Shown: in pieces, positions 2,310-14,116 of the stretch
How the letters are laid out: each line of letters opens with the position of its first letter
Position numbering within the stretch: the first letter of the stretch is position 1
Origin: Coleofasciculus chthonoplastes F2-STO-03
Lineage (GTDB): Bacteria; Cyanobacteriota; Cyanobacteriia; Cyanobacteriales; Coleofasciculaceae
DNA length: 21,126 bases
Reading direction: 5' to 3'
Assembly: GCA_040222015.1 (NCBI GenBank)
Contig: JAVJWO010000206.1
Span: 1-21,126, forward strand
The notes under the pieces: generated by a model
What the model was told of the DNA's origin: nothing
What the model saw: the letters and a program-made list of their open reading frames with translations, nothing else
The model's database searches: none
Program-made: the position numbers and the translations under genes

Positions 2310-3428
2310 ATGACTCAACCGATTAACCTTTTCGAGTACGAATCATTAGCCCATCAACAGTTATCTCGAATGGCGCTAGATTATTACGCCAGTGGCGCTT
2401 GGGATGAAGTAACGTTACGCGATAATCGGACTGCGTTTGAGAAATTCAAACTTCGTCCCCGCATGTTAGTTGATGTCAGTCAGCGAGATTTAAGTACAAC
2501 GGTTTTAGGACAATCTCTCTCCCTACCGATTCTAATTGCGCCGACGGCATTTCAATGTTTAGCACATCCAGAGGGGGAAATCGTGACGGCGAAGGTAGCG
2601 GCGAATGTGGGTTCAGCGATGGTATTGAGTACCATGTCTACTCAACCGTTAGAAGAGGTGGCATTGACATCCAAACAGGTGCAGTCAGACTCTCAGACAG
2701 ATAGTCATTCTCCATTATGGTTTCAACTCTATGTGCATCGCGATCGCGCTTTGACTCAAAACTTAGTTGAACGGGCGGAAGCGGCGGGGTATAGCGCCCT
2801 CTGTCTCACCGTCGATGCGCCTGTTTTAGGGTGTCGAGAAAAGGATAAACGCAATCAGTTTACCTTACCCCTGGGGATGCAGTTGGCGAATTTAACCCAT
2901 CGAGATATTCCGGAAATCGTCGGCGAATCGGGGTTATTTGCCTATTTTGTCCAACAGCTTGACCCCGGCTTAACGTGGCAAGATTTGGAATGGTTACAGT
3001 CCTTGACAAAATTACCAATTATTGTTAAAGGAGTTTTACGTGGCGATGATGCACTGCGGGCGGTGGAACATGGGGCAAAAGCCGTGATTGTCTCCAATCA
3101 TGGGGGTAGACAATTGGATAGTGCGATCGCGTCAATTGATGCTCTTTCGGAAGTGGTTACGGCTGTAGGTGATCAAGTCGATGTGCTTATGGATGGAGGG
3201 ATTCGCCGTGGCACAGATGTCCTTAAAGCCTTAGCATTAGGGGCGAAAGCGGTGTTAGTGGGGCGTCCGGTATTGTGGGGATTAGCGGTGGCGGGAGAAG
3301 CGGGCGTACAGCATGTCTTGGAATTGTTGCGGGATGAGTTGGATATAGCAATGGCGTTGAGTGGTTGTGCCAAAGTAGAGGATATTGATCAGAGTTTACT
3401 CACTCTAGCGTTTAAGGGGACAGATTAA
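2310..3428 (+). CDS. FMN-dependent alpha-hydroxy-acid oxidase/dehydrogenase (glycolate/lactate oxidase family)
   Basis: YYASGA, LRPRMLVDVS, WFQLY, TVDAP..G.RE, SNHGGRQLD, DGGIRRGTDVLKALALGA motifs. Confidence 0.95.
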   Translation: MTQPINLFEYESLAHQQLSRMALDYYASGAWDEVTLRDNRTAFEKFKLRPRMLVDVSQRDLSTTVLGQSLSLPILIAPTAFQCLAHPEGEIVTAKVAANVGSAMVLSTMSTQPLEEVALTSKQVQSDSQTDSHSPLWFQLYVHRDRALTQNLVERAEAAGYSALCLTVDAPVLGCREKDKRNQFTLPLGMQLANLTHRDIPEIVGESGLFAYFVQQLDPGLTWQDLEWLQSLTKLPIIVKGVLRGDDALRAVEHGAKAVIVSNHGGRQLDSAIASIDALSEVVTAVGDQVDVLMDGGIRRGTDVLKALALGAKAVLVGRPVLWGLAVAGEAGVQHVLELLRDELDIAMALSGCAKVEDIDQSLLTLAFKGTD

Positions 3429-6612: not shown

Positions 6613-6726
<114 letters not shown>

Positions 6727-6847: not shown

Positions 6848-7333
6848 CTATTTGCAATGGTTAGCATTCCTAGTTCGAGTAGTAGTCACTACTGTACCCG
6901 TTCCTCTACGGGCATTGAAACCACGGCTTTTAAGTTCCGCTACAAATTTATTTGCTTTTGAGCGGTTGTAGAACGAGGCGACTATAATTTGATTCGCAGC
7001 ATTAGCGTAAGCATCACAGCAGTAATACTTGCGAATTCTTCGCAAATTTGAGTCAGTATAATTGACATAAACGCGATACCATTTATTTGTTCCACCTGCA
7101 CTGATATCGCCACAAAAACTCATGGGAAAATCAAATGCAGAAGTCTTTTTAATCGTATGAGTTTTAATATTTTCTTGAGGAGTAAATAATTGAAATAGTC
7201 CATAGCCTGTCACAATCAGAAAACTAGCAACCGTTGAAACTATCAACCTTTTTTTGCTAAAAAACTTAGGTCGTTGGTGTTTTTGCAAGGCGATAAGGAT
7301 CTTTCGCTTAATTTCTTCTTCGTCATTCCTCAT
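6848..7333 (-). CDS. Cassette-2 single-pass membrane protein: basic N-terminal peptide, TM helix, Cys-containing SPOR-like outer domain
   Basis: MRNDEEEIKRKILIALQKHQRPKFFSKKRL + hydrophobic helix; IIVASF.NRSKA.KF..ELKSRGF resembles SPOR-like folds; start overlaps the stop of the ATPase-tail duplicate by 11 nt. Confidence 0.75.
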   Translation of the reverse strand: MRNDEEEIKRKILIALQKHQRPKFFSKKRLIVSTVASFLIVTGYGLFQLFTPQENIKTHTIKKTSAFDFPMSFCGDISAGGTNKWYRVYVNYTDSNLRRIRKYYCCDAYANAANQIIVASFYNRSKANKFVAELKSRGFNARRGTGTVVTTTRTRNANHCK

Positions 7334-7629
7334 CACAATTTCCTTCTCTGGCTATAGCTGCTTTAACTTTTTCCGTGATTTGCTTGTTTTCTTTTGGAGT
7401 CAAACTATTGGATTCTGAAGCAACATTAATCCGGGATTTTTTGATACCTTCGATAGATTTGCGTAAATCGGTTAATTCGATCTGGTTTTTTCTCTGGCGT
7501 GCAACTCTCATCGCCGCATCAATCACGGCATTTTTAATATCGCGACCGCAAATATCATCCTCTTTAGCTAGTTCTTCAACTAACACATCCTTGGCTTTTG
7601 GCATTTTGTCTGGGAGATGTTTTCCCCAG
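7323..7629 (-). pseudogene. Orphan duplicate of the AAA+ ATPase C-terminal ~100 codons (lid and tail), no true start
   Basis: WGKHLPDKMPKAKDVLVEELAKEDDICGRDIKNAVIDAAMR matches the 8260-9396 product; 7516-7629 vs 8465-8578 = 108/114 identical. Confidence 0.92.
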
Positions 7630-7644
7630 TCACGCCAGTAGGGT

Positions 7645-7674
7645 GTAGGGTGCGTTAGCGAAGCGTAACGCACC
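7645..7674 (+). repeat. GTAG-family REP GTAGGGTGCGTTAGCGAAGCGTAACGCACC at the cassette junction
   Basis: Perfect 9-bp stem; copies at 2178-2207 and 14140-14191. Confidence 0.85.
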
Positions 7675-7747
7675 ATTACTGAACTAAGGTTTAAATGCCG
7701 AACATTGATTCAAAATCAGCCTTTTTTATAAAAATTTTATGTGTACA

Positions 7748-8270
7748 TCACTTGTCTTTACCAATACTAAAGTTAAATGTTTTTTTGTTCGCCCACAAGT
7801 CACCACAGTAGGCTGTAACTTTTCCTTTGTAATTTCCTCGATTGAAATGTCTGTTAGGCATATATAAAGTACGATTTTTATATATGCTATATTGATAGGT
7901 TGGTCGAAACCTTCTGCCAACTGACAATTGATTATCTGTTGTTTGATAACCAGGAATAGTGCTTCTTACCTTGCGACCGTTCTTATGATAAAAGTACACA
8001 GTAGTATTACATTTATGACCTTTCAAGTGTGCCGTCTTCAATTCAAAATTAATTCTTATGTTTTTACCAGAAGATCTGGCTAAATTATGTTGAATGTCGA
8101 GTTTGCTTATATTTATTCTAGGCTGGCTTTCCCAAATAAAAAAACCTACGATTGCCAAAGCTAAAAAACCCGAAAAAAAACAATCGATTTTTATCAAAAA
8201 ATTTTGTTTTTTGTTTTCTTTTTAGAGCCTGAAGATTTTTTTTACTAATTTCTTTTTCGTCATGTCTCAT
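7748..8270 (-). pseudogene. Cassette-1 single-pass membrane protein with beta-rich basic outer domain; +1 frameshift in a homopolymer tract near 8163-8180
   Basis: ATG at 8270 gives MRHDEKEISKKNLQALKRKQKTKFFDKNRL (homologous to the cassette-2 N-terminus) but stops at 8118; removing one base from A8 (8173-8180) or A6 (8163-8168) joins it to ORF 7748-8197. Confidence 0.8.
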
Positions 8271-9396
8271 TTTTTTCTATCCTCTCCTCTTTTTCAATAG
8301 CAGCTTTTATTTTTTCTCCAATTAAATTTTTCTCTTGATGTGTCAGTTCCTCAGAGCTGTCATCAGAATAAATATTAATACGAGATTTTTTTATTCCTTT
8401 GATCGATCTGATAAGATCAGTTAATTCAATCAGGGTTTTGCCTTTACGAGCTGCTCGCATTGCTGCATCAATCACGGCATTTTTAATATCGCGACCGCAA
8501 ACATCATCCACTTTAGCGAGTTCTTCAACTAACACATCCTTTGCTTTTGGCATTTTGTCTGGAAGATGTTTTTCCCAGATTTTTTGACGACAGATTTCAT
8601 CTGGCATGGGAAAGTTTACATGGCGCACTCGCGTTTCAAATGCTTTATCATAATTTTGAACTAGATTAGTAGAAAAAATGACAACTCCGCGAAATCGTTC
8701 TAAGCAGATAAGTAACTGACTCCGCATGGAGTTAATGGCTTGTTCAGAACCTTGAGTGACGTTGGTTAGTCGTTTAGAAAGTAAGGAATCGGCTTCATCG
8801 ATAAACAGCAAGGCGTTTTCTCGCTCGGCTGCCATGAAAATTGCCTCAACATTTTTGGGTCCTTCGCCATGATACATACTCTCAATTTGAGCATAACTGG
8901 CAACTAAGATAGGACGGTTAATTTTAGAGGCGATCGCGTGTGCTGCCAGGGTTTTTCCGGTTCCCGGTTTACCATGAAAATTGAGTGCTGTACGAGGAAA
9001 AGGTTCAATTTGCCGCAATCCCCACTCATCGAAAACTTTGGACTCTAACTGAATTAAGTCAACAGCCAAAAGCAAGTCTTCTTCTACTTCGTTGGGAACG
9101 ACTAATTGCTCGAAGGTAAACAAAGGCTTGCTATATTTGTATTTTTTTGCGCGTTCTTCAGGGGACAGATTGTAGTCAGATTTTTTATCCGCAGAATCGC
9201 TAGATGCGGCAGATAGTTTCTGACTGTTTTTGGGGATTTCAGATTCAGTCCCTACGATAACCTGGATAGTTTCAAGATTAGTTTCTTTCAGTAGCCTAGT
9301 GACTGCATTTAAAAGTCTGGAACGACAAACCGCAGCGACAGTTTCAGGGACTTGATTGGGAATACCATTTACCAAAAGAGAAGGAACTTCATTCAT
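8260..9396 (-). CDS. Classical-clade AAA+ ATPase (single module) with short N-terminal domain
   Basis: Walker A GKPGTGKT, pore loop SMYHGEG, Walker B LLFIDEAD, SRH FSTNL..NYDKAFETR. Confidence 0.95.
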   Translation of the reverse strand: MNEVPSLLVNGIPNQVPETVAAVCRSRLLNAVTRLLKETNLETIQVIVGTESEIPKNSQKLSAASSDSADKKSDYNLSPEERAKKYKYSKPLFTFEQLVVPNEVEEDLLLAVDLIQLESKVFDEWGLRQIEPFPRTALNFHGKPGTGKTLAAHAIASKINRPILVASYAQIESMYHGEGPKNVEAIFMAAERENALLFIDEADSLLSKRLTNVTQGSEQAINSMRSQLLICLERFRGVVIFSTNLVQNYDKAFETRVRHVNFPMPDEICRQKIWEKHLPDKMPKAKDVLVEELAKVDDVCGRDIKNAVIDAAMRAARKGKTLIELTDLIRSIKGIKKSRINIYSDDSSEELTHQEKNLIGEKIKAAIEKEERIEKNET

Positions 9397-9528
9397 ATAC
9401 GGTAAAACCTGTAAATAGGTTAATAATTTGGAATTATATTTCCAACGTACAACTTATTTTATGCCGTAACTCTGAGCCTCTAGTATTGTTGTGTAAACAG
9501 AGCCTGATTTAATCACTCTGGCAGTTTA

Positions 9529-9870
9529 TTACCAAAATGCTACTTCATTGAAACGGTGTGCATTTCGTATTTTTGAATCTACCGAATCTGCCTCAATACC
9601 TCTTGCATTATGAACTTCTTCAGTTTTTGTATTGAAAATTCCCTGAGCGATTTTATAATTTCCATCGTAAATCGCTTGTTTTACGGTAAACGCAAGATAT
9701 TCTCTATCTTTTAGGCTTCTGCGATCGTTTTCAACTATCAAATAAGCGAACTTTTTAAACCAACTTGCTAGTATCTCTAGAGTTAGGCAGAAAAAGTGAA
9801 GACCTACATAAATTCCGGCGTTAACACCCGCCCATACAGCAGCCCATAATAACAGTGATAATGGTTCCAT
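9529..9870 (-). CDS. Hypothetical protein: N-terminal hydrophobic segment plus one copy of the operon's ~80-aa domain
   Basis: RBS AGGAG upstream; LTLEILASWF...QGIFN...RGIEADSVD aligns by eye with the repeats of 9880-10614. Confidence 0.8.
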   Translation of the reverse strand: MEPLSLLLWAAVWAGVNAGIYVGLHFFCLTLEILASWFKKFAYLIVENDRRSLKDREYLAFTVKQAIYDGNYKIAQGIFNTKTEEVHNARGIEADSVDSKIRNAHRFNEVAFW

Positions 9871-9879
9871 TTTGTCTCC

Positions 9880-10614
9880 TTATTGCAAAATAATTAAATC
9901 TTTTTCGCCAAAAAATTCCCACAATTCTTCGTCCAATTGCCTAGCCACTAACTGGCGACCATAGGGCTTACCCGCCGAATCACAAACTGGCTCATTATTT
10001 TTATCTATAAACATTTGGGTAAGATGATATCCTTGAGGATGAGGTTTACGCAGTAAAGCTACTCTTTTTATCCTTGGATCGTTTGGGCGAGCGCTGACAA
10101 AATACTTGATAGCTTCCTCATAGGTCATCACTGGTATAACTTGTGGTAATTTCAGAAGGTCACGCAACAATTCTCCAGATTGGGCGAATACATCCTGATT
10201 AAAGCCATCGCTAGGGAAATTTTTCTCTGTCAATTTAAAAACAATTAAATTCCGATCAGCGAAATGGTCTATCAGTTTTTTGTCTAAACTTTTCGCAACT
10301 AGCTGGCGACCATAGGGAGTACCATCTTTACGACAAACAATTCGATTATGTTGATCTAAAAATACCTGCCCTAAGATTTGAACTTCAACGTCTTCTTGAC
10401 GAATAATTACACCCTTGTGAACAGTAAAGTCGGCTGGGCGATCGGTCTCAAAAAAAGTTATCACCTGATCAAACGTTACGAGCGTCTGGACTTCAGGTAT
10501 TGCCAGAATTTGCGGTGACCATTTATTAAACTGAGCAACTATTCGCTGTTTATCCTCGTGAGTTATTTTTTTATCTCGATCAGAGGAGTCCTTTAAAAAC
10601 CAGTTCACAATCAT
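9880..10614 (-). CDS. Hypothetical protein with two tandem ~85-aa repeats
   Basis: TFDQVITFF...QVFLD..N..VC...G.PYGRQLVAKSLD..L...F....LI vs TYEEAIKYF...QMFID..N..VC...G.PYGRQLVARQLD..L...F....LI. Confidence 0.85.
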   Translation of the reverse strand: MIVNWFLKDSSDRDKKITHEDKQRIVAQFNKWSPQILAIPEVQTLVTFDQVITFFETDRPADFTVHKGVIIRQEDVEVQILGQVFLDQHNRIVCRKDGTPYGRQLVAKSLDKKLIDHFADRNLIVFKLTEKNFPSDGFNQDVFAQSGELLRDLLKLPQVIPVMTYEEAIKYFVSARPNDPRIKRVALLRKPHPQGYHLTQMFIDKNNEPVCDSAGKPYGRQLVARQLDEELWEFFGEKDLIILQ

Positions 10615-10687
10615 TGCCTAATTTCTATTATTTGCTAAAGTTGTTATTTCTAAGTTTGGCTATTTAGCAAAAAACTACAAATGATTC

Positions 10688-10701
10688 GTAAAATATTTTA
10701 C
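10688..10701. promoter_or_regulatory. Perfect palindrome GTAAAATATTTTAC (fits GTA-N8-TAC) in the divergent promoter region
   Basis: Read directly; no TAN3T at the canonical 22-nt NtcA spacing on either strand. Confidence 0.3.
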
Positions 10702-10930
10702 TTTACAAACTAAACTCTACCCTTAACCCAGGAATGGATACAGAGAGGTTGTTAGGTATTTTGCAGATTCAAAAAATAGCTATATAACTATCATTGTGGC
10801 ACGCATTTTTTGTAGCGGCAAGCTTAATTGGGTTAATTTAGTGTAGAATGATAACTTGATTCCAAATTTTATTTGGCGTAAAAAAGAAGAATTTAGTCGC
10901 TAAAAGTGAAAAAGAGTGTAATATAGTGTA

Positions 10931-12316
10931 ATGCTAGACTCAGATCCACTTTCAGCTATGGACGTTCAAGAAGTCTTAAACTGGACGGATAACTTGGTGT
11001 TCTCGAAAACGGGAAAACATCTCGACTCCCTGCAAAAGGCTGTAGTTGAGGGGACTTGGCAGCGGCAAAAGTATCCAGAAATTGCTAGGAATTGCCACCG
11101 TACTCATGATCGCATCAAACAAGTGGCAAGAGAATTATGGCAGTTAATATCGGCAGAGCTGGGAGAAGATGTTAGGCAATCTAATTTTCGAGCTATTTTA
11201 GAACAAGTAGAATTTTCCAATATCTCAAATTTTAGTTCTGACTATGTGCAAATCGTGGGTGATATTAATTTCTGTAACGAACATTGCCCTTATCCCAAAG
11301 CAAAAAAACACCGATCGCGCACCTCAAACGCCACCAGTACCAAACCCGAAAAACGCCACGATTTAACCGAAGCACCGGAGTGCGATCGCGTCTACAACTG
11401 CACCACAGAACTAACCACCCTTAAACAGTGGATACTCCAAGAAAAAATCCGCATCGTCACTATCTTTGGATTGCCTGGTATCGGCAAAACCACCCTCGCC
11501 AGAGAACTGGTAGAACAAATTAAAGATAACTTCGATTATATCCTCTGGCGCAACTGTACTGAAACTCTGACACTGAAATCTCTAAAAACCAACTTAATTC
11601 AGTTCTTTTATAAAGATAGAGAAACCCAACTCCCCTCCCTAATCGACTATCTGCGATCGCATCCCTGTCTGATCATCCTCGACGACTTCCAAGAACTATT
11701 TACCCCTGGAGAATTAGCAGGTACATATCTGCCAGACTGTGAAAATTACAGCAAATTCTGGCAACAAATGGCGCGAACACCTCACCACAGTTGCTTCCTC
11801 CTCATGAGTTGGGAAAAACCCACAGAAATTGCCATCTTAGAAGGAGAAAATCGCCACTGTCGCACGTTACAACTTGATGGTTTGGCAGAGTCTGCGTCGG
11901 AACTATTGACGAATAAAGGGTTAACCGATGAGGATAAATGGTTGGAACTTATCGAACGTTACAGTGGCAATCCCTCCTGGTTAACTATAATTGCCTCTAC
12001 TATCCAAGATTTATTTAACGGTAGCGTTGATCGCTTCTTATCCTATCCCAGTCTATTTCTGGGAGACTTAGAACCCAGATTGCAGGCACAATATCAACGG
12101 TTATCTGAATCTGAGAAAATGGTAACCCTGTGGTTGGCGAACCAAAACGCAGTAGACATTTCCGATAAACCTGCCGAGTTAGCGTTGTCTGATTCCGATT
12201 TTTTGAAGGCGGTACAGTCTTTGAGAAAACGGGGTTTAATTGAAAAAATAACCAATAACGGCTCATCGCTGTTCGCCGTTCAAGCTTTAGTTAAAGCCTA
12301 TGTGAAAGAGAGATAG
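10931..12316 (+). CDS. STAND NTPase (NB-ARC) with cyanobacterial N-terminal HTH domain and C-terminal winged helix, no WD40/TPR sensor (start may be 10958)
   Basis: KTGKHLDSLQKAVVEGTW...YPEIA HTH; GLPGIGKTTLA; LIILDD; LLMSWE; YSGNP (GxP); ends at SLRKRGLIE wHTH. Confidence 0.9.
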   Translation: MLDSDPLSAMDVQEVLNWTDNLVFSKTGKHLDSLQKAVVEGTWQRQKYPEIARNCHRTHDRIKQVARELWQLISAELGEDVRQSNFRAILEQVEFSNISNFSSDYVQIVGDINFCNEHCPYPKAKKHRSRTSNATSTKPEKRHDLTEAPECDRVYNCTTELTTLKQWILQEKIRIVTIFGLPGIGKTTLARELVEQIKDNFDYILWRNCTETLTLKSLKTNLIQFFYKDRETQLPSLIDYLRSHPCLIILDDFQELFTPGELAGTYLPDCENYSKFWQQMARTPHHSCFLLMSWEKPTEIAILEGENRHCRTLQLDGLAESASELLTNKGLTDEDKWLELIERYSGNPSWLTIIASTIQDLFNGSVDRFLSYPSLFLGDLEPRLQAQYQRLSESEKMVTLWLANQNAVDISDKPAELALSDSDFLKAVQSLRKRGLIEKITNNGSSLFAVQALVKAYVKER

Positions 12317-12363: not shown

Positions 12364-12768
12364 CTAGGTCTGTCGCCAATTCTCAGTTTGAAGACCAACA
12401 ACGCGATTAAATTCTCGTTGGTTGGCAGTAATAATTATCAGTTGATGTTCCAGTGCGGTGGCAGCAATCAAGACATCATAAGCCCCAATTGGCTGTCCTT
12501 GAGATTTGAGTATGGCACGAATCTCAGCCGCTTTTTCAGCTTCGGCGGTTGTGAAAGGGAGAATCGTCACAGAAGACAGAAAACTGAGAATAATGGGTTT
12601 GATTTTTTCTGCCCGTTGTGGATTGAGGGTTAAACCATAGTTGAGTTCCATCACTGTAATTGAGGAAACAGCAATGTTGATTGGGTCGGTTTGCGTGATT
12701 CTGCTTTGAGTACCTGGTTCGCCTTTGATGAAGTCACTGATGACACAGGTATCGAGGAGGTATTGCAT
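12364..12768 (-). CDS. vapC: VapC PIN-domain toxin
   Basis: YLLDTCVISD, SSITVMEL.YG, G.PIGAYDVLIAATAL, T.N.REF.RV.GL..ENW. Confidence 0.95.
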   Translation of the reverse strand: MQYLLDTCVISDFIKGEPGTQSRITQTDPINIAVSSITVMELNYGLTLNPQRAEKIKPIILSFLSSVTILPFTTAEAEKAAEIRAILKSQGQPIGAYDVLIAATALEHQLIIITANQREFNRVVGLQTENWRQT

Positions 12769-13010
12769 TAGAAAATTTCCGGTTCGCGAGGGGGAAGCAG
12801 TTCATCCCGATAGGACTCGAAAGCGGGGAAATCAGGGATTCCTTGATAAGACAAAATCGCCTCTGGCCATTGGGACACTGAAATGGGTAGCGTTTGCATG
12901 GTGCGGCGTAACACTTGCACAATTAAAGTAGGCAGGGGAATATTAGATTGTGTGGCTTGATGGATAAGGTCTTGTTCGAGGTCTGGCGGTAGGTCGATGG
13001 TAATTTGCAT
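12768..13010 (-). CDS. Cognate antitoxin (VapB-like)
   Basis: 80 aa, MQITIDLPPDLE, 1-nt overlap (TAATG) with vapC. Confidence 0.8.
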   Translation of the reverse strand: MQITIDLPPDLEQDLIHQATQSNIPLPTLIVQVLRRTMQTLPISVSQWPEAILSYQGIPDFPAFESYRDELLPPREPEIF

Positions 13011-13099
13011 CGGTAATTTTCCTCAATTTATCCCGCTTCGAGATTTTATCACCCTCCATGATAAACTCAACGAGGATTGAATGTCTGCGGTGAGGATGA

Positions 13100-13260
13100 G
13101 CTTGCCAAACAAGGACTGTAGCTTTTAATCGCCTCAAAACTCTCTTGAGATTCGGGTAAAAATGGTTAAAGCTATTGCTGTCCAATGAATGAGTTCCGAA
13201 ATCACTTTGGTGTCGAGAATGATTTTCATGGTTCGCCAAACAGGGTTTCTGCCATAACCT
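13100..13260 (-). pseudogene. Internally deleted second vapBC/fitAB-type remnant
   Basis: ATG at 13229 gives MKIILDTKVISELI followed almost directly by LTIFTRISREF* (PIN N- and C-terminal motifs); upstream stub ends ..FGEP* with an ATGA overlap. Confidence 0.6.
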
Positions 13261-13349
13261 TTGCCTCCTCATGACGCCCCAGAGTGAATAAAGCATAACC
13301 GCGACTATTGGCTACTCTAAAATAGAGGCAGTTTTCGTGAGGTGACGAT

Positions 13350-13724
13350 ATGACTTTAGCGAAGAATCCACAACCAATAATCATCCGCACAGAACGTGGA
13401 TTGACCATTTCAGGCACACGCATTACACTCTACGACGTGATGGACTACCTCACGGCTCAATATCCACCAAAGTTTATCTGCTCTCTACTTCATCTGACAG
13501 ATGAGCAAATTAGCGCTGCCTTATCCTATATTGAAGCAAATTGCCCTGAGGTTGAAGCCGAGTATCAATTTGTCCTGAAACAGGCTGAAGAAAATCGGCA
13601 GTATTGGCAGGAGCGTAATCGTGAACATTCGGATCGTGTTGCCACAATGCAGCCCAAACCAGGTCGCGAAATTCTTTGGGCAAAACTCCAACAACAGAAA
13701 GCTAGACATCAACTAGAAGTATGA
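13350..13724 (+). CDS. DUF433 antitoxin
   Basis: IIRTERGLTISGTRITLYDVMDYL...LT.EQI.AALSYI. Confidence 0.9.
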   Translation: MTLAKNPQPIIIRTERGLTISGTRITLYDVMDYLTAQYPPKFICSLLHLTDEQISAALSYIEANCPEVEAEYQFVLKQAEENRQYWQERNREHSDRVATMQPKPGREILWAKLQQQKARHQLEV

Positions 13725-14116
13725 TTTTCCTTATTGATCACAATCTGGGGGGACATGCAGAGATTTTATTGGGAAATCTTGCCAGTCAAGGCTGGTTGGA
13801 GTTACTTCCAATTCGTTTTGTTAGCTTTAAGGAGATCAATCTATCGATTGACAGCAATGATCGAATTGTTTGGAGAACAGCTCAGGCAAATCAAATGATT
13901 CTGCTGACAGCCAATCGGAGCATGAAGGGTGAAAATTCACTCGAGCAAGTTCTGCGGGAGGAAAACACAGTAAATTCACTCCCTGTGATGACGATTGGAG
14001 ACACTGATCGATTTTTAGCAGATCGAGCCTATCGAAATCGTTGTGTTGACCGTATTCTGGAGATTGTGCTTGATATCGAAAACTGGATGGGAGTAGGTCG
14101 CATCTTTATTCCATGA
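13721..14116 (+). CDS. DUF5615/VapC45-like PIN toxin
   Basis: FLIDHNL, D..VW..AQ...MILLTANR; ATGA overlap with the DUF433 gene. Confidence 0.85.
   Translation: MIFLIDHNLGGHAEILLGNLASQGWLELLPIRFVSFKEINLSIDSNDRIVWRTAQANQMILLTANRSMKGENSLEQVLREENTVNSLPVMTIGDTDRFLADRAYRNRCVDRILEIVLDIENWMGVGRIFIP

Follow-up and report, generated by a model that had tools for sequence, protein, structure and literature searches.

Gene content of the window and spread of its core

We examined a stretch of 21,126 nt (hereafter the window), which is contig C206 in the 7.7-Mb genome of the cyanobacterium Coleofasciculus chthonoplastes F2-STO-03, and which carries a compact operon for two small proteins (A and B), a classical AAA+ ATPase and membrane proteins, facing a divergent helix-turn-helix (HTH)-NB-ARC gene of the STAND type. 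A preliminary description, made from the letters of this DNA, had proposed the block as a membrane-linked conflict or defence system. Its open reading frames (ORFs; 244 aa, 113 aa, the 378-aa AAA+ and the divergent HTH-NB-ARC) all lie where it had placed them (Table 1), with gene A and the HTH-NB-ARC gene head-to-head and 316 bp between them. The AT-rich character it had claimed is borne out by a GC content of 37.9% in positions 6848–10614, against 46.4% in the remaining window and 45.4% genome-wide. The membrane partner that it had listed is present, but as two genes (C1 and C2) instead of one; a further ATPase 3′ end between C1 and C2, as well as a frameshift in C1, had been missed.

Table 1 Features of the ATPase cassette and its surroundings in the window
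Feature	Position	Strand	Description
Gene A, 244 aa	9880–10614	−	Soluble; two tandem predicted D copies, about residues 35–127 and 152–244
Gene B, 113 aa	9529–9870	−	N-terminal TM helix and single predicted D domain
AAA+ ATPase, 378 aa	8260–9396	−	Classical clade, single ring; putatively recombinant 3′ end
Gene C1	7748–8270	−	One TM behind a short N-terminal helix; beta-rich domain holding two conserved Cys; reading frame broken
Dispersed genomic repeat, short	7641–7680		Truncates ATPase remnant at its 5′ end
ATPase 3′-end remnant (lid and tail)	7323–7629	−	Nucleotide identity to the L023 ATPase 3′ end
Gene C2	6848–7336	−	One TM behind a short N-terminal helix; SPOR-like domain holding conserved Cys
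Divergent promoter region, candidate operator	10615–10930		Repeated conserved motif
HTH-NB-ARC (STAND), 461 aa	10931–12316	+	PF00931; sensor repeats absent
Flanking toxin–antitoxin (TA) modules	12364–14116		Context outside the core: a PIN toxin and its upstream partner, a remnant, and a DUF433/DUF5615 pair

The core of this operon, an ATPase of one clade together with two to six small proteins bearing a domain that we call D, is a well-supported gene system conserved across phyla and not described before; literature searches by accession and by theme found no description, although source-data tables of comparative-genomics papers could list such operons. It was found in Cyanobacteriota, Spirochaetota, Chloroflexota, Myxococcota and Armatimonadota. 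A, B and ATPase genes recur, in an order kept across phyla, in records titled Spirochaetaceae, Myxococcota, Ktedonobacteraceae and Armatimonadota, and 35 distinct A+B+ATPase triplets were counted in addition to the window and a Planktothrix plasmid locus (L132). On that plasmid the triplet comes with six D-bearing genes. Positions 3077–12753 of L132 hold an Hsp70-TPR-D gene, five more D genes, the ATPase, a HerA-like DUF87 gene and unknowns, with an integrase adjacent; across plasmid records, D genes occurred in 1 of 72,556 (one query gave none). A further 200 Spirochaetota genomes yielded nine with clusters of two to five D matches, and in each of the nine a related ATPase adjoins them; D was found in 0/250 further Chloroflexota, 0/100 further genomes in the class of G303 and 0/5 in the phylum of G302.

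Among 301 genomes of the same order, gene A had a match in 21 and the ATPase clade in 14. A D gene adjoins the ATPase in 13 of these 14, so that the co-occurrence is not due to chance, and the fourteenth is a 5′-truncated copy without D. The other eight genomes matching A comprise six in which D is joined to a helical domain and transmembrane (TM) helices and no ATPase lies nearby (one of the six being cut by a contig end), one with D and a C2-type gene, and one in which the match is full of stops. Within the genus, the cassette is present in two of nine genomes, all of them at least 96% complete. A metagenome scan was centred on the ATPase and covers the best 80 of 500 loci. In a quick tree of 79 clade sequences and eight outgroups, whose shape is unlike the taxonomy, D lies within 2.5 kb of the ATPase in 52 of the 79 and is absent in 19, the contig being too short to tell in eight; the D-less ATPases form two nested clades, which makes the linkage look ancestral.

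Chance juxtaposition of unrelated island genes is true of the flanks, where TA, STAND and C genes vary between loci, but for the core it is contradicted by the conserved A-B-ATPase order and by a spirochaete version built from the same parts, and we regard it as extremely improbable. The preliminary description had staked its proposal on the genes keeping company in other genomes, and they do so across five phyla.

The ATPase and the D domain

The ATPase is a distinct clade of classical AAA+ proteins with a single ring. It matches PF00004 (E = 7.6e−24) and carries Walker A (GKPGTGKT), Walker B (LLFIDEAD), the pore loop MYHG and the second region of homology (SRH; TNL..R256), in agreement with its earlier assignment to the classical AAA ATPases with an aromatic pore loop. 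Except at M174/Y175 of the pore loop, where F/K variants occur, these motifs are invariant or near-invariant in 36 homologues, and the N-domain (GIP...CRSRL) is specific to the family. Members of the classical AAA+ family are hexamers that unfold proteins at the expense of ATP, and the window ATPase would by family membership be expected to do the same. The solved structures nearest to its profile are VAT (E = 3e−56) and p97/Cdc48. Membership of the Cdc48/p97/VAT group itself was rejected, given the 378-aa length with one AAA domain and a TIGR01243 score of 78 bits versus 802; so was membership of Vps4/PspA (no MIT or Snf7/PspA Pfam match, an alpha/beta D model, and CdvC at 62 bits versus 650) and of MoxR-vWA (an ATPase of the classical clade, and no vWA among scanned neighbours).

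The genome's next-closest ATPases are 31–34% identical and include types belonging to extracellular contractile injection systems (eCIS), the one on contig C23 having a winged-helix domain (WHD) as well as Pvc16_N and eCIS_core neighbours. These relatives are what would favour a loading or export ATPase of the Pvc15/Afp15 kind, serving a secretion or injection apparatus encoded elsewhere. The window ATPase, however, has no WHD (PF22977) at E ≤ 1 and is separated from the eCIS group by long branches in the tree, on which grounds an eCIS identity was rejected; tube, sheath, Pvc16 and eCIS_core genes were absent from the scanned flanks (0 of the 89 proteins in the main flank scan, 88 of which are flanking ORFs chosen from about 195), and we hold this explanation to be very unlikely. 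An assignment to such an ATPase, which the preliminary description had named as an outcome that would count against it, thus did not occur.

Its expectation that PADLOC would return nothing failed to the letter, IetA being matched at E = 1.7e−24, but kept its sense in that the match looks like general AAA similarity. Identity with IetA was rejected on an NCBIfam NF042959 score of 80.1 bits versus a cut-off of 510 and the lack of a protease partner; no IetS-type serine protease was found among the window genes or the 89+28+27 Pfam-scanned neighbours. With the ATPase neither IetA nor eCIS type, the claim that no named system is matched stands.

Several unusual members of the clade were seen. A 1037-aa ClpN-TM-AAA-AAA fusion (L181:4923–8036) is likely a membrane-anchored unfoldase; in the genome with this form (G780) no D was found, and ClpN and TM stand there as if replacing D. 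In two genomes (L137:3–2446 and L138:6014–9327), a 5′-truncated clade ATPase lies behind an operon for glycine-rich hydrophobic helical proteins with a small divergent regulator. D-less ATPases on soil contigs (L067, L071–L094) have an N-terminal extension of ~80 aa and often a neighbouring gene that we take to be dehydrogenase-like.

From their sequences, A and B appear to share one domain, D. Gene A contains an internal repeat (33% identity, E = 1e−15), and its AlphaFold 2 model (predicted local distance difference test, pLDDT, 76; predicted template modelling score, pTM, 0.50) has two similar domains with the element order helix, three-stranded meander, helix, terminal strand (alpha/beta, ~85 aa). 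The model of B, which is membrane-anchored by TM prediction, shows this element order again in the domain behind its TM helix (pLDDT 61–71 there). The two families merge after three iterations of hidden Markov model (HMM) searching, the opposite models then matching window B at E = 1e−17 and window A at E = 1e−16. Gene A has 61 homologues, the nearest named one from Coleofasciculus chthonoplastes (75% identical), and gene B has 70, Myxococcota and Spirosoma among them.

Gene A matched nothing in Pfam, PADLOC or NCBIfam, and D belongs to no consistent family in these collections, 42 D proteins giving scattered single weak matches. The D profile reached at best E = 0.64 against PDB sequences, the D model had no Foldseek match at E ≤ 0.001, and fold searches of PDB and BFVD gave no D match; the best VIA match had Z 3.7 (rmsd 3.8, 61 aligned). 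The B model returned helix matches only, and A repeat 2 had no usable match to named Atlas clusters, while the ESM Atlas holds unnamed structural look-alikes of B (TM-score 0.68–0.74) in clusters whose members come mostly from Bacteroidota, Campylobacterota and Actinomycetota. Failure to match a solved fold is not proof of a new one. A complex prediction with the ATPase, B and A repeat 2 gave no answer (score 0.01) and counts neither way.

An N-terminal TM helix is present in 66 of the 133 distinct D proteins, and 30 of the 67 without one have an amphipathic N-terminal helix (p ≤ 0.05 versus shuffles), which backs the membrane linkage proposed earlier. In 118 of 139 proteins at most six residues lie between the end of D and the C-terminus, and D mostly closes with four hydrophobic residues and one polar. 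A broad D alignment has zero invariant columns, which fits an adaptor and not an enzyme. D is fused to Hsp70 in L048, L078 and L132.

Such helices, common on D, and the conserved hydrophobic C-terminus as a possible grip would also suit a TA logic like that of IetAS, close to the earlier view, in which membrane-active D effectors are held harmless by continual ATPase extraction and are freed to be toxic when ATP is lost or the ATPase inhibited. IetA is the best PADLOC match, and the IetAS ATPase acts as antitoxin according to the accessible part of PMC13069673. Yet D genes persist without a clade ATPase in seven genomes and stand beside split ATPase genes in L043, L169 and L174 (possible assembly errors), and the NCBIfam IteA score was 80 bits against a cut-off of 510; we consider this logic quite unlikely.

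Other architectures occur around D. Proteins with D, two TM helices and a long helical domain, without ATPase (L032:4396–5805, L036:7726–9081, L038, L039 and L040), are usually divergent from the same STAND type as in the window, and similar helical proteins lacking D come after the ATPase in L061 and L062. In L037 (4105–6953) the genes behind the ATPase are an additional B, one for a small P-loop protein (by eye like a GTPase; no Pfam match) and one for a TPR protein. A supposed fusion of D to the ATPase N-domain in L033 was dropped, as by eye the extra domain resembles the neighbouring gene.

Accessory genes and putative exchange within the ATPase gene

C genes, with an N-terminal helix, a TM and an exchangeable outer domain, stand behind the ATPase mainly in one cyanobacterial clade, and their outer domains are SPOR-like, beta-rich or of a third type. 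C2 matches PF05036 (E = 3.4e−5, 24.5 bits versus a cut-off of 21) and is 91% identical to C2 of L023. Intact C1 homologues of 172–176 aa come after the ATPase in other loci; in the window, a T run near 8173 is one base too long and puts C1 out of frame, the added base being absent from three of four public runs and present in one, so that the break is strain-specific, and the two-cassette layout is found in related strains too. C1 reached at best E = 0.19 against PDB sequences. The idea that the N-terminal helix of C proteins copies the ATPase C-terminal helix was unsupported (best ATPase match E = 2.1). At window position 8236, all four public runs show another base (strain variant or assembly error).

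For the history of the cassette, the window was mainly compared with L023, the locus of the same-genus genome G300. D genes have been swapped between close strains: against G300, dS reaches 0.83 in B and 0.61 in A repeat 2, compared with 0.12–0.22 in the ATPase core, STAND and C2; B of the window is 71% identical to a locus from a different family versus 54% to G300; and in run X1 3 of 1407 bases differ over ATPase and B, while part of A is replaced. The C cassettes are likewise exchanged. The window ATPase is 93–100% identical to that of G300 at alignment columns 300–900 and then 56–77%, nearer L027, the switch falling near column 915. The second ATPase 3′ end (83% nucleotide identity over 216 nt) has 84–93% nucleotide identity to the L023/G300 3′ end and 57–67% to the window's own last 225 nt. 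Together, switch and remnant suggest that recombination close to the conserved CGRDIKNAVIDAA codons brought in a 3′ end together with C1, which pushed aside the resident end and its C2, so that the two surface cassettes would have been left by recombination inside the ATPase gene. The preliminary description had cast the variable surface domain as the trigger of the system, which was not supported, the surface-domain gene being confined to cyanobacterial loci.

Nor was STAND supported as a core part. The gene (PF00931, E = 9.8e−11; a weak winged-HTH match at E = 0.14, its N-terminal region being presumably HTH) is cyanobacterial only, with other STAND types in its place at some loci. Its closest paralogue (60%; L185:2305–5382, which is C32:11304–14381 of G000) stands opposite a 97-aa ORF and an ATP-grasp gene of MvdD/RimK type, an operon unrelated to the cassette and likely a graspetide-type peptide cluster. 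This paralogue occupies a site syntenic with the D cassette of G300, and the regulator therefore travels with different cargo; the HTH-NB-ARC protein is likely a local, accessory regulator. Between the divergent genes, a repeated motif (consensus about CTAWATNACAC, with an exact copy at 10916–10926) is a candidate operator; a shuffle test of it is circular, the motif having been derived from the same sequences. RNA run X15 (contigs only) covers parts of the operon and intergenic DNA, and is therefore not read as expression.

The flanking TA modules and remnants claimed earlier are present: by Pfam, a PIN gene at 12364–12768 and a DUF433/DUF5615 pair at 13350–14116, with a DUF433 remnant at 6631–6720. 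A 576-bp stretch of TA remnants (12674–13249) is 97% identical to contig C32. The dispersed repeat of ~37 bp at 7641–7680 has dozens of near-identical copies genome-wide and coincides with a spike in read depth. At the contig end (20913–21126) lies the start of an ORF that we take to resemble IS200/IS605 TnpB.

A tentative role and comparison with known systems

In the reading that we tentatively favour, the D proteins gather at the inner membrane as adaptors and bring in the ATPase, in a conflict, surveillance or recognition role; we prefer small proteins as adaptors over small proteins as substrates. Through D–D contacts, D proteins would assemble on the inner membrane face, and by binding the ATPase the assembly would act as adaptor for its p97/VAT-like ring, which would then unfold a putative client at the membrane or pull the D assembly itself apart, resetting it. 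In cyanobacteria the single-pass C protein with its exchangeable outer domain would likely help to sense the envelope or to place the system, and transcription is likely under the control of the divergent HTH-NB-ARC protein. Speaking for this reading are the D–ATPase linkage, the TM and amphipathic N-termini, and the ties to chaperones given by the D-Hsp70 fusions and the ClpN-TM-AAA-AAA form.

The conflict role put forward earlier is plausible from the patchy spread, the mismatch of ATPase tree and taxonomy, the swapping of A, B and C alleles, and the TA-rich sites. By hand count, 10 of 22 loci that are cyanobacterial or resemble cyanobacterial ones have a PIN, DUF433, Uma2, HicA or DUF4926 gene within 2.6 kb. 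The share expected is about 12%, where the expectation is the density in this genome alone and related genomes are among the 22 loci; spirochaete loci have no TA-type flanks.

Besides the nature of this expectation, several results weigh against our reading. Homology of A and B depends on HMM iteration, which can drift; their direct profile comparison is weak (P = 0.011), and seed HMMs of the two yield only six cross-matches (E < 0.05) in 1407 ORFs from the loci, neither A nor B of the window being one of them. The link of D to ATPase is not obligatory, with D lacking a clade ATPase in 7 of the 301 genomes and the 19 clade ATPases lacking D. A dN/dS of about 0.3 indicates exchange but no positive-selection signal, viral contigs and phages yielded no homologue, and no client or effector enzyme is at hand for the cassette. 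Finally, the genes flanking spirochaete D loci look, as we take them, like housekeeping genes and not like defence islands.

Those flanks are in keeping with an alternative that we judge somewhat unlikely, namely that the cassette serves envelope or membrane-protein quality control under stress, as a PspA/ESCRT-III–Vps4-like system or a membrane extractase with no conflict role. TM and amphipathic N-termini on D proteins, the D-Hsp70 and ClpN-TM-AAA fusions and the SPOR-like accessory would all fit, but the very patchy spread, the swapping of alleles and cassettes, and an alpha/beta D model unlike the helical hairpin of PspA do not. Operons that pair PspA/Snf7 with classical AAA+ ATPases, as given in the accessible part of PMC11237479, also speak for it.

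A bolder extension of our favoured reading, rather unlikely as it stands, would make D a new membrane-surface adaptor fold that forms a mixed assembly at the inner membrane, and the cassette a ubiquitin-free bacterial counterpart of p97/Vps4 membrane extraction for immune surveillance, with a p97-like motor respecified by swaps of D alleles and surface-sensor cassettes through recombination in the ATPase gene. If the favoured reading holds, bacteria would possess, at the membrane, a dedicated p97-like extractor with adaptors to guide it, and cassette exchange would use the conserved ATPase gene as its crossover site. In any case the cassette is a three-part machine of compact size, built around a widespread domain that lacks a family name and, in our searches, any solved-fold match. 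In its minimal form, two ~110-aa proteins and the ATPase (for example in L061 and L062), its small size would allow expression, reconstitution and structure determination.

Among known systems, IetAS (Gao_Iet) is alike in its single-ring classical AAA+ ATPase of similar size and unlike in its serine protease partner, the window cassette having D proteins instead. Pvc15/Afp15 of eCIS represent the nearest ATPase group within this genome, but the window ATPase falls in a separate clade without WHD, and no tail, sheath or Pvc16 genes lie near the loci. Vps4/CdvC with ESCRT-III/Snf7/PspA offers an analogy, a classical AAA+ beside paralogous small membrane proteins (PMC11237479, accessible part), from which the cassette departs in its alpha/beta D with no helical hairpin and an ATPase without MIT. 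The NTP-dependent ternary conflict systems (MoxR-vWA, GAP1/2), as far as the accessible part of PMC7159879 goes, share a chaperone/NTPase core, Hsp70 links, STAND neighbours, repeated adaptor domains and variable accessory parts; that part contains no description of the D cassette, whose ATPase is classical and not MoxR and which has no vWA, VMAP or enzymatic effector. No ubiquitin system was seen in D-cassette loci. The p97/Cdc48/VAT group, closest among solved relatives of the ATPase, shares the aromatic pore loop, the SRH and membrane-tethered partners, whereas the window ATPase has one ring and not two, an unrelated short N-domain, and D proteins as its partners.

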